From Escherichia coli (GTDB taxonomy: Bacteria; Pseudomonadota; Gammaproteobacteria; Enterobacterales; Enterobacteriaceae), in assembly GCF_050920415.1 (NCBI RefSeq), contig NZ_CP169309.1: a stretch of DNA of 64,000 nucleotides. One strand, given 5' to 3'. The position numbers and the translations under genes were made by a program. A model generated the notes under the pieces. It was not told the origin of the DNA and did no database searches. It worked only from the letters and a program-made list of their open reading frames with translations. Shown in pieces: positions 45,133-46,613 of this stretch; the first letter of the stretch is position 1; each line of letters opens with the position of its first letter.

Positions 45133-45981
45133 ATGGCGACATACCTTATTGGCGACGTTCATGGTTGTTACGATGAACTGATCGCATTGCTGCATAAAGT
45201 AGAATTTACCCCTGGGAAAGATACCCTCTGGCTAACAGGCGATCTGGTTGCGCGCGGCCCAGGTTCGCTGGATGTTCTGCGCTATGTGAAATCCTTAGGC
45301 GACAGCGTACGTCTGGTGCTGGGCAATCACGATCTGCATCTGCTGGCGGTATTTGCCGGGATCAGCCGCAATAAACCGAAAGATCGCCTGACACCGCTGC
45401 TGGAAGCGCCTGACGCCGACGAGCTGCTTAACTGGCTGCGTCGCCAGCCTTTGCTGCAAATCGACGAAGAGAAAAAGCTGGTGATGGCCCACGCAGGGAT
45501 CACGCCGCAGTGGGATCTGCAGACCGCCAAAGAGTGCGCGCGCGATGTAGAAGCGGTGCTGTCGAGTGACTCCTATCCCTTCTTTCTTGATGCCATGTAC
45601 GGCGATATGCCAAATAACTGGTCACCGGAATTGCGGGGGCTGGGAAGACTGCGGTTTATCACCAACGCCTTTACCCGTATGCGTTTTTGCTTCCCGAACG
45701 GTCAACTGGATATGTACAGCAAAGAATCGCCGGAAGAGGCCCCTGCCCCACTGAAACCGTGGTTTGCGATTCCTGGCCCTGTCGCTGAAGAATACAGCAT
45801 CGCCTTTGGTCACTGGGCATCGCTGGAAGGCAAAGGTACGCCGGAAGGTATTTACGCGCTGGATACTGGCTGCTGCTGGGGTGGTACATTAACCTGCCTG
45901 CGCTGGGAAGATAAACAGTATTTTGTCCAGCCGTCGAACCGGCATAAAGATATGGGTGAGGGAGAGGCGGCCGCGTCTTAA
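45133..45981 (+). CDS. apaH: Bis(5'-nucleosyl)-tetraphosphatase (symmetrical) ApaH
   Basis: 282-aa [19 protein letters not shown], metallophosphatase motifs. Confidence 0.95.
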
Positions 45982-46292
45982 ATCCCGTCGAGCATAAAAT
46001 CTAATGCTCCTTTAATCAACGTTCGGTGCGCGCTGGCATCGCAAAATTTCGTTCCCAGCGCGTTAACTGGAACAGTTGCAGTCTCATGCGTCATGAGCAC
46101 ATATTCTTTGCCATATACCAGTAAAAGGATTGGGTTAAGCCGTTCTGGTGGGCGAATATGGCTAAATCGTTCAATAGGTGTTCATGGAATAACGATACGG
46201 CGATTAATCTCACCAATAATGTCGCTGGTAACATCGATAACAAAGGGCAACGCGGCGTTCCTGCCGCGACTGCGGTATACCGTAAATTGCAT
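45978..46292 (-). pseudogene. ccdB: ccdB-like gyrase-toxin gene interrupted by an in-frame TGA at codon 36
   Basis: Manual minus-strand translation from ATG 46292..46290: [109 protein letters not shown]; CcdB-like start and end; absent from the ORF track because of the internal stop. Confidence 0.75.
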
Positions 46293-46294
46293 CG

Positions 46295-46528
46295 CTAGAA
46301 GCTCCGGTACTCATCAGAGAAACATCCGGTTTCATCAGCCAATTGATTTAACGCAGCGATAGCTTCTGCGTTCTCTTCACGCCAACGTGTTGCTGCATGT
46401 TTTTTAAGTTCAGCATTGAGCGCAACCGTAAGGGTGGCGCTCATATTTAAGCCTGCATCACGAGCGCGATTGACTAACTCACGGTCGACGGTGACGGTCA
46501 CACTTTGTGTGGTACGTTTTGCAGTCAT
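46295..46528 (-). CDS. ccdA: ccdA-like antitoxin
   Basis: 77-aa ORF MTAKRTTQSVTVTVDRELVNRARDAGLNMSATLTVALNAELKKHAATRWREENAEAIAALNQLADETGCFSDEYRSF; CcdA-like, stop 2 nt before the ccdB-like ATG. Confidence 0.8.
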   Translation of the reverse strand: MTAKRTTQSVTVTVDRELVNRARDAGLNMSATLTVALNAELKKHAATRWREENAEAIAALNQLADETGCFSDEYRSF

Positions 46529-46613
46529 GATATCGTGCTCCTGTACAATTTATACGTCTAGTATGCACGGATATCTGCACGTATCAGTGATGCCGGAATT
46601 CTAATATACAAAC
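46529..46613 (-). promoter_or_regulatory. Putative promoter/operator of the ccdAB-like operon
   Basis: AT-rich spacer between folA stop and ccdA start with partial dyads (tatacgtctagtatgcacggatatctgcacgtat); inferred. Confidence 0.35.

Follow-up and report, generated by a model that had tools for sequence, protein, structure and literature searches.

The window analysed here is a 64,000-nt stretch of Escherichia coli DNA in which the core genes apaH and folA are separated by 632 nt, the apaH stop ending at 45981 and the folA stop beginning at 46614. The corresponding spacer in the K-12-type strain KLY measures 77 nt and has a REP-like element inside it; an initial annotation made from the letters alone had stated, correctly, that the K-12 spacer is short. 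It had also placed two minus-strand genes within the long spacer, and all of their coordinates agree with the open reading frame list and with our reading of the minus strand across 45700..46900. The features of the locus are as follows.

45133..45981, plus strand: apaH, the core gene on the left flank (282 aa; TAA stop at 45979..45981).
45982..46603, no strand: the ccd islet in its approximate extent, set against the 77-nt REP-containing spacer of KLY by alignment, GC content and the literature.
45978..46292, minus strand: the ccdB pseudogene, a 105-codon frame with an internal TGA at codon 37, whose conceptual protein is a full-length member of the CcdB family.
46182..46184, minus strand: the inactivating stop, TGA; each of the 17 other alleles examined has TTA (Leu) here.
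46182..46292, minus strand: the expected ccdB product, a 36-aa N-terminal fragment ending in VIP.
46115, minus strand: D60Y, private to this lineage; Asp in all other alleles.
46248, minus strand: F15L, private to this lineage; the other alleles all have Phe, and the F-plasmid and Vibrio fischeri proteins have an aromatic residue.
46295..46528, minus strand: the intact ccdA gene, encoding 77 aa; the protein is WP_000125566.1, as in most alleles.
46529..46613, minus strand: the folA-ccdA spacer, 85 nt, presumed from consensus matching only to hold the ccd promoter and operator.
46614..47093, minus strand: folA (dihydrofolate reductase), the core gene on the right flank.

The antitoxin gene comes first and the toxin gene second, both on the minus strand, with a 2-nt gap between the ccdA stop (TAG, 46297..46295) and the ccdB ATG (46292..46290), which is the architecture of a type II toxin-antitoxin operon. 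At the other end the ccdB and apaH stops share a single TTAA and the convergent genes overlap by 4 nt; apaH is 849 nt long in this ccd-positive form as compared to 843 nt in KLY, where it is two codons shorter. The GC content of the islet is 47.1%, against 52.7% across the whole window, which fits a horizontal origin. A scan of the islet for direct and inverted repeats returned only short matches at chance level, with no terminal repeats that would mark the boundary of a mobile element.

The intact 77-codon frame had been likened to CcdA, and profile and structure searches bear this out. Its protein matches Pfam CcdA (PF07362) at E=1.5e-26 over residues 8-77, covering model positions 2-71 of 71, and the F-plasmid CcdA structures (PDB 2adl and 2h3c) match it at E=9e-6, with 2adl aligned over residues 3-70. 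The full-length profile match and the intact reading frame place the gene in the CcdA antitoxin family. Against the NCBIfam equivalog for F-plasmid CcdA (NF010264) it scores 38.6 bits, below the cut-off of 100. The ccdB frame consists of 36 sense codons, the TGA, and 67 further sense codons before the TAA at 45980..45978. All three landmarks of this frame (ATG 46292..46290, TGA 46184..46182 and TAA 45980..45978) had been located correctly, and the counting between them was off by one in two places: the TGA had been called codon 36 where it is codon 37, because 36 sense codons precede it, and 68 codons had been counted after it where there are 67. With Leu placed at the stop, the conceptual toxin matches Pfam CcdB (PF01845) at E=6.2e-31 across the entire model (1-101 of 101), and its solved homologues include the CcdB proteins of V. 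fischeri (2kmt, E=1.9e-15) and of the F plasmid (1vub, 1e-9). In the alignment with the solved structures the stop takes the place of Leu in the conserved VIPL motif, confirming, along with the TTA of the 17 other alleles, that it sits where CcdB has Leu. The alignment of both conceptual proteins with those of the F plasmid and other ccd systems, which had been proposed as a check, is thus significant for each, far beyond chance. As with the antitoxin, the NCBIfam equivalog for the F-plasmid toxin (NF010262) is missed, at 57.4 bits against a cut-off of 147. Judged by their sequences, the proteins belong to the Ccd superfamily and are not the plasmid proteins themselves.

The lesion itself, L37*, is a single T-to-G transversion on the coding strand; position 46183 of the plus strand is C here and A elsewhere. 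The full-length CcdB profile match thus spans a frame interrupted at codon 37. The 36-residue fragment is expected to lack the C-terminal two thirds of the fold, including, by analogy with the F-plasmid toxin, the end needed for gyrase poisoning; the C-terminal residue W99 of F CcdB is needed for that activity, as cited in PMC7232551.

Two complete genomes carry this stop. Over 25 kb the window shows 100.0% identity to the chromosome of a Korean food isolate, E. coli MFDS1022581 (NZ_CP169399.1), in which PGAP annotates a 'CcdB family protein, internal stop' beside a 'type II toxin-antitoxin system CcdA family antitoxin'. The second genome belongs to N96, isolated in China from the faeces of a Tibetan pig (NZ_CM169999.1); it matches the window throughout the 801 nt, TGA included, its ccdB is likewise annotated as a pseudogene, and 3 SNPs separate it from the window in the surrounding 2.8 kb. 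Because of the in-frame TGA and the PGAP 'internal stop' we file the locus as a CcdB-family pseudogene rather than as a CcdB protein. An 81-mer centred on the stop matches exactly in these two of 5426 complete genomes, and the codon is TTA in 17 distinct genomes (IAI39, EC42405, 2020CK-00188, RMDEC465 and 13 further alleles).

The initial annotation had allowed for a base-call error, in which case the strain would really have an intact ccdB. Such an error, in sequencing or in assembly, would sit well with the presence of the TGA in only 2 of 5426 complete genomes, one of which is identical to the window over 25 kb and probably represents the same assembly; the plasmid annotation of MFDS1022581 also contains many frameshifted pseudogenes, though these lie in IS remnants. 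However, N96 comes from another country, another host and another sequencing project. Since its TGA is the same although its flanking haplotype differs slightly, the stop is inherited and is not a one-off error. Moreover, the lesion is a substitution rather than a homopolymer indel, and three further private substitutions of the islet co-segregate with it. We therefore reject a base-call error, which is extremely unlikely. The stop is inherited in a small lineage and is older than the split between MFDS1022581 and N96.

Compared with 17 other alleles over a 720-nt interval, the window lineage has four private substitutions, at 46183, 46248, 46115 and 46565, and none of the four falls inside ccdA. 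The earlier description of the toxin frame as otherwise clean holds for the reading frame, which is open, and fails for the protein, in which F15L and D60Y are private missense changes. Likewise, the suggestion of a recent event in an otherwise intact frame stands only in part, as the stop predates the separation of two strains and is joined by F15L, D60Y and a change in the predicted promoter. The change at 46248 also interrupts the run of T residues in a terminator-like hairpin that our scan reported in other alleles.

The fourth private substitution lies in the 85-nt spacer between folA and ccdA. Here CTGATA at 46587..46582 is a predicted -35-like element, and the predicted -10 at 46565..46560 reads CATACT in the window versus TATACT in most alleles, a T-to-C change of its first base. 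For one other allele (L012) the promoter scan reported CTGATA-16-TATACT at the equivalent place, 31 nt upstream of the ccdA ATG. In the window no canonical sigma-70 promoter upstream of ccdA rose above the scan threshold, and in IAI39, where the -35 is altered, the scan found none either. Promoter matches occur at chance level (1 found versus 1.4 expected), so that the prediction serves as a lead only. The change at 46565 also destroys a GTATAC palindrome that is present in other alleles; the F-plasmid ccd operator has palindromes of this sequence at its core (PMC5389731).

In E. coli no stop codon is leakier than UGA, termination is slowed after a C-terminal proline, and the base after UGA that favours leakage most is C. 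Read through as Trp, or recoded as selenocysteine, the TGA might deliver a low and attenuated dose of toxin, and the locus would then be a working, tuned toxin-antitoxin module. The codon before this UGA is indeed Pro, and the downstream frame is open for all 67 codons. On the other hand, the base after the stop is A and not C; F15L and D60Y, at otherwise invariant positions, and the down-type change in the -10 look like decay rather than tuning; many other lineages carry unambiguous ccdB frameshifts or deletions; and a leak would yield only a trace of triple-mutant protein amid excess antitoxin. We consider a tuned module highly unlikely. Selenocysteine insertion or other structured recoding we reject, as the 71-nt stretch beginning at the TGA has a folding energy of -5.9 kcal/mol (z = -1.19), no better than that of shuffled sequences, with no SECIS-type stem-loop next to the UGA, and no Rfam family matched at E<=1. 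A trace of full-length L37W protein from a leaky UGA is possible.

The initial annotation had proposed a chromosomal ccd module in which the toxin was lost to a single nonsense change and the antitoxin kept, and on this the profiles, the structures, the RefSeq annotation and the intact alleles all agree. The identity of the module therefore stood, while the published ccdO157 system and its published decay had been missed (Wilbaux et al. 2007, J Bacteriol 189:2712; Mine et al. 2009, Genetics 181:1557; as cited in PMC7167474, PMC3184786, PMC2654758, PMC7232551 and PMC7280312). In the passages of PMC3184786, PMC7167474 and PMC7232551 that treat it, ccdO157 is a genomic islet between folA and apaH of E. 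coli O157:H7, K-12 having no islet and a 77-bp spacer; the region is described there as plastic, often with a REP sequence instead, and as holding defective ccd copies in some strains. According to PMC7280312, which cites Mine 2009 on this point, defects are present in about 30% of the toxin genes, and the chromosomal toxin, unlike that of plasmid ccd, is under no selection to be kept. Finally, F-plasmid CcdA is stated to neutralise the chromosomal toxin, whereas against the plasmid toxin only the plasmid's own antitoxin is effective (PMC7354431 and PMC10305079, citing Wilbaux 2007).

The locus in the window shares with ccdO157 the insertion site, gene order and spacing, shows 96-99% nucleotide identity to alleles in about 2021 genomes, encodes the CcdA protein common to most carriers, and has an inactivated toxin beside a retained antitoxin. 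Only its lesion sets it apart, the combination of L37*, F15L, D60Y and the -10 change being found in 2 of 5426 complete genomes. The assignment rests on the insertion site and on near-identity to chromosomal E. coli ccd alleles, the comparison having been made with IAI39 and the other carriers. F-plasmid ccdAB (PDB 1vub, 3vub, 2adl, 2h3c, 3g7z) belongs to the same Pfam families, likewise has the antitoxin gene ahead of the toxin gene in its operon, and shares the conserved VIPL motif, the C-terminal GI motif and a GTATAC-type palindrome of the kind found upstream of ccdA in most chromosomal alleles. It is nevertheless distant, with phmmer E-values of 1e-9 for CcdB and 9e-6 for CcdA and both proteins under the equivalog cut-offs; in addition, the window locus is chromosomal, its toxin gene is a pseudogene, and cross-neutralisation runs one way only. 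The closest solved homologue is the chromosomal CcdB of V. fischeri (PDB 2kmt, 3jrz, 3jsc), in which VIPLTPIE, the stretch across the stop site, is identical, although this protein is an intact and active toxin from another genus and another genomic context. The locus is a chromosomal ccdO157-type islet in decayed form, already known and already annotated.

The spacer survey that had been suggested for related genomes was run by megablast of 45900..46700 against 5426 complete E. coli genomes. The same site is filled by the full insert in about 2021 of them (about 37%), always on the chromosome and always between apaH and folA, and genomes without the insert match at the flanks only. Over 801 nt the window is 98.9% identical to IAI39 and 96-99% identical to all other carriers. 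To describe the lesions we translated 15 ccd-positive carriers taken at even spacing from the listing. Full-length ccdA was present in every one, and ccdB was disrupted in eight, by at least five different lesions: L37* (the window allele), C84* (Z1002), a +1 frameshift (FDAARGOS_1303), G95* in three genomes, where it is annotated as a 94-aa CDS, and a 13-bp deletion in two. Across the 5426 complete genomes, exact 81-mers counted 413 genomes with G95*, 93 with C84* and 2 with L37*, while the junction of the 13-bp deletion had 43 exact and 216 near-exact ungapped matches, or 259. Thus the four lesions counted make at least 767 of about 2021 carriers (38%) ccdB-null, a database frequency rather than a natural one, as complete genomes over-sample clinical clones. 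As a by-product this amounts to a present-day replication of the 2009 result, with at least 38% ccdB-null carriers from four lesions versus the earlier figure of roughly 30% defective toxins. L37* is very rare and private to a divergent lineage, and it is this specific allele alone that is uncommon.

Taken together, we put a probability of about 0.9 on the reading that the 632-nt spacer holds a ccdO157-type type II toxin-antitoxin islet in a decayed state, comprising an orphan antitoxin gene and a toxin pseudogene. By analogy with the F and O157 systems, the intact ancestor would have made CcdB, a gyrase poison that binds GyrA, neutralised by a labile CcdA through the C-terminal domain of CcdA, and the CcdA-CcdB complex would have kept the operon repressed from GTATAC-type operators lying upstream of ccdA. 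In the present allele translation would stop after 36 residues, leaving no folded gyrase-binding CcdB, and killing and addiction would be lost. CcdA is probably still produced, from a predicted promoter that may be weakened, and would have nothing to neutralise; deprived of its CcdB co-repressor, it should bind the operator weakly. The locus would then add another case to the decay under relaxed selection that has been documented for this islet throughout E. coli. Its significance reaches little beyond a correct annotation: it is a textbook example of how a toxin-antitoxin islet of horizontal origin loses its toxin, but keeps its antitoxin, when selection is relaxed.

The persistence of ccdA could also be read as selection. 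An orphan ccdA might be kept for anti-addiction against plasmid ccd, or as a transcription factor, with toxin loss as an adaptive domestication, a scenario compatible with the decay of the islet. Anti-addiction has been shown for the chromosomal ccd of Erwinia chrysanthemi (PMC10305079). In E. coli, ccdA is full length in 15 of 15 sampled carriers, and the single protein WP_000125566.1 is the CcdA of 18 of 21 sequences (20 loci and the window), despite a ccdB that is about three times more diverse than ccdA at synonymous and nonsynonymous sites alike. In the same small sample, however, where sites are few and the alleles are not independent, both genes have a pN/pS of about 0.45, so that ccdA is no lower than ccdB; this value is one of relaxed rather than strictly neutral evolution and does not on its own tell the toxin apart from the antitoxin. 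As for anti-addiction, the O157 chromosomal antitoxin is stated not to neutralise the F-plasmid toxin (PMC7354431, citing Wilbaux 2007). [quoted passage not shown] Cells that lose ccdA before ccdB die, and therefore the antitoxin outlives the toxin with no special function needed; this alone explains the asymmetry. Selection for an orphan ccdA is accordingly unlikely. In the source strain, no plasmid ccd was found in the first 50 kb of a 242-kb plasmid, a region that holds pemIK and a RelE/Phd pair.

One further idea, to which we give very little weight, is that toxin decay in this islet may be coupled to silencing of the operon rather than being pure drift, or that leaky UGA read-through keeps a trace of toxin. 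Coupling might arise if loss of CcdB as co-repressor derepressed ccdA and the cost of this selected for promoter-down mutations. Should the association described next hold after phylogenetic correction, erosion of the promoter and operator and loss of the toxin would be mechanistically linked. The predicted -10 hexamer TATACT overlaps the sole GTATAC operator-type palindrome, and it has been altered independently at three of its six positions, to CATACT in the window lineage, to TTTACT in four alleles and to TATACC in one. In counts that ignore phylogeny, ccdB is dead in five of the six genomes with a changed hexamer as compared to three of the 13 in which the hexamer is intact.

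The most frequent ccdB-null allele was G95* (GGA to TGA), which was found in 413 genomes by exact 81-mer and is represented among our comparison loci as follows:

L019, L020 and L021, locus coordinates 409..693: G95* ccdB allele, last 10 residues lost

In RefSeq this allele is carried as a plain 94-aa 'CcdB family protein' (WP_001160964.1) with no pseudogene label, so that toxin decay would be underestimated by any count that relies on annotation.

Two elements were predicted within the ccd islet:

Window 46560..46565, minus strand: predicted -10 hexamer of the ccd promoter, TATACT in most alleles, by consensus match only
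Window 46239..46266, minus strand; L003 1343..1369; L012 643..669: site of a terminator-like element in the ccdB 5' end, codons 9-17, by scan of alleles other than the window's

The predicted -10 hexamer overlaps a GTATAC palindrome, and three of its positions have changed independently, in the window lineage and in comparison loci L008, L009, L010, L015 and L018. The window lineage has CATACT, four other genomes have TTTACT and a single genome has TATACC. Without phylogenetic correction, ccdB was dead in 5/6 genomes with an altered predicted hexamer as compared to 3/13 with an intact one. Within ccdB itself, the terminator-like element of alleles other than the window's consists of a hairpin, CGCGGCAGGAACGCCGCG, with 6 GC pairs, followed by TTTCCCTTTG; this element could reduce toxin output relative to that of the antitoxin. 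In the window allele the F15L change (TTT to TTG) interrupts the run of T residues, and here the element is no longer detected by the scan.

At the other end of the islet, apaH is 849 nt long in ccd-carrying genomes as compared to 843 nt in the K-12-type strain, reflecting a 6-nt insertion that adds two codons near the apaH 3' end (window 45955..45981). The apaH and ccdB stops overlap there, sharing TTAA. Acquisition of the islet has therefore reshaped the terminus of this core gene.

When a 25-kb core-gene stretch (window 33000..57999) was compared against complete E. coli genomes, MFDS1022581 was 100% identical and one other genome, presumably N96, was at least 99% identical. Beyond those two, none of the complete genomes exceeded 98.2% over this stretch and most were approximately 96.8% identical, and we therefore place the strain from which the window comes in an E. 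coli lineage that is divergent and has been sampled only sparsely. A plasmid of MFDS1022581, the probable source strain of the window, was also inspected:

L022, positions 1..50000: initial 50 kb of plasmid pMFDS1022581_1 (NZ_CP169400.1; 242 kb in total)

ccd genes are absent from this first 50 kb, which carries pemIK, a RelE/Phd-YefM pair and numerous IS remnants, together with a type VI secretion gene cluster and an AvrPphF-family effector gene.
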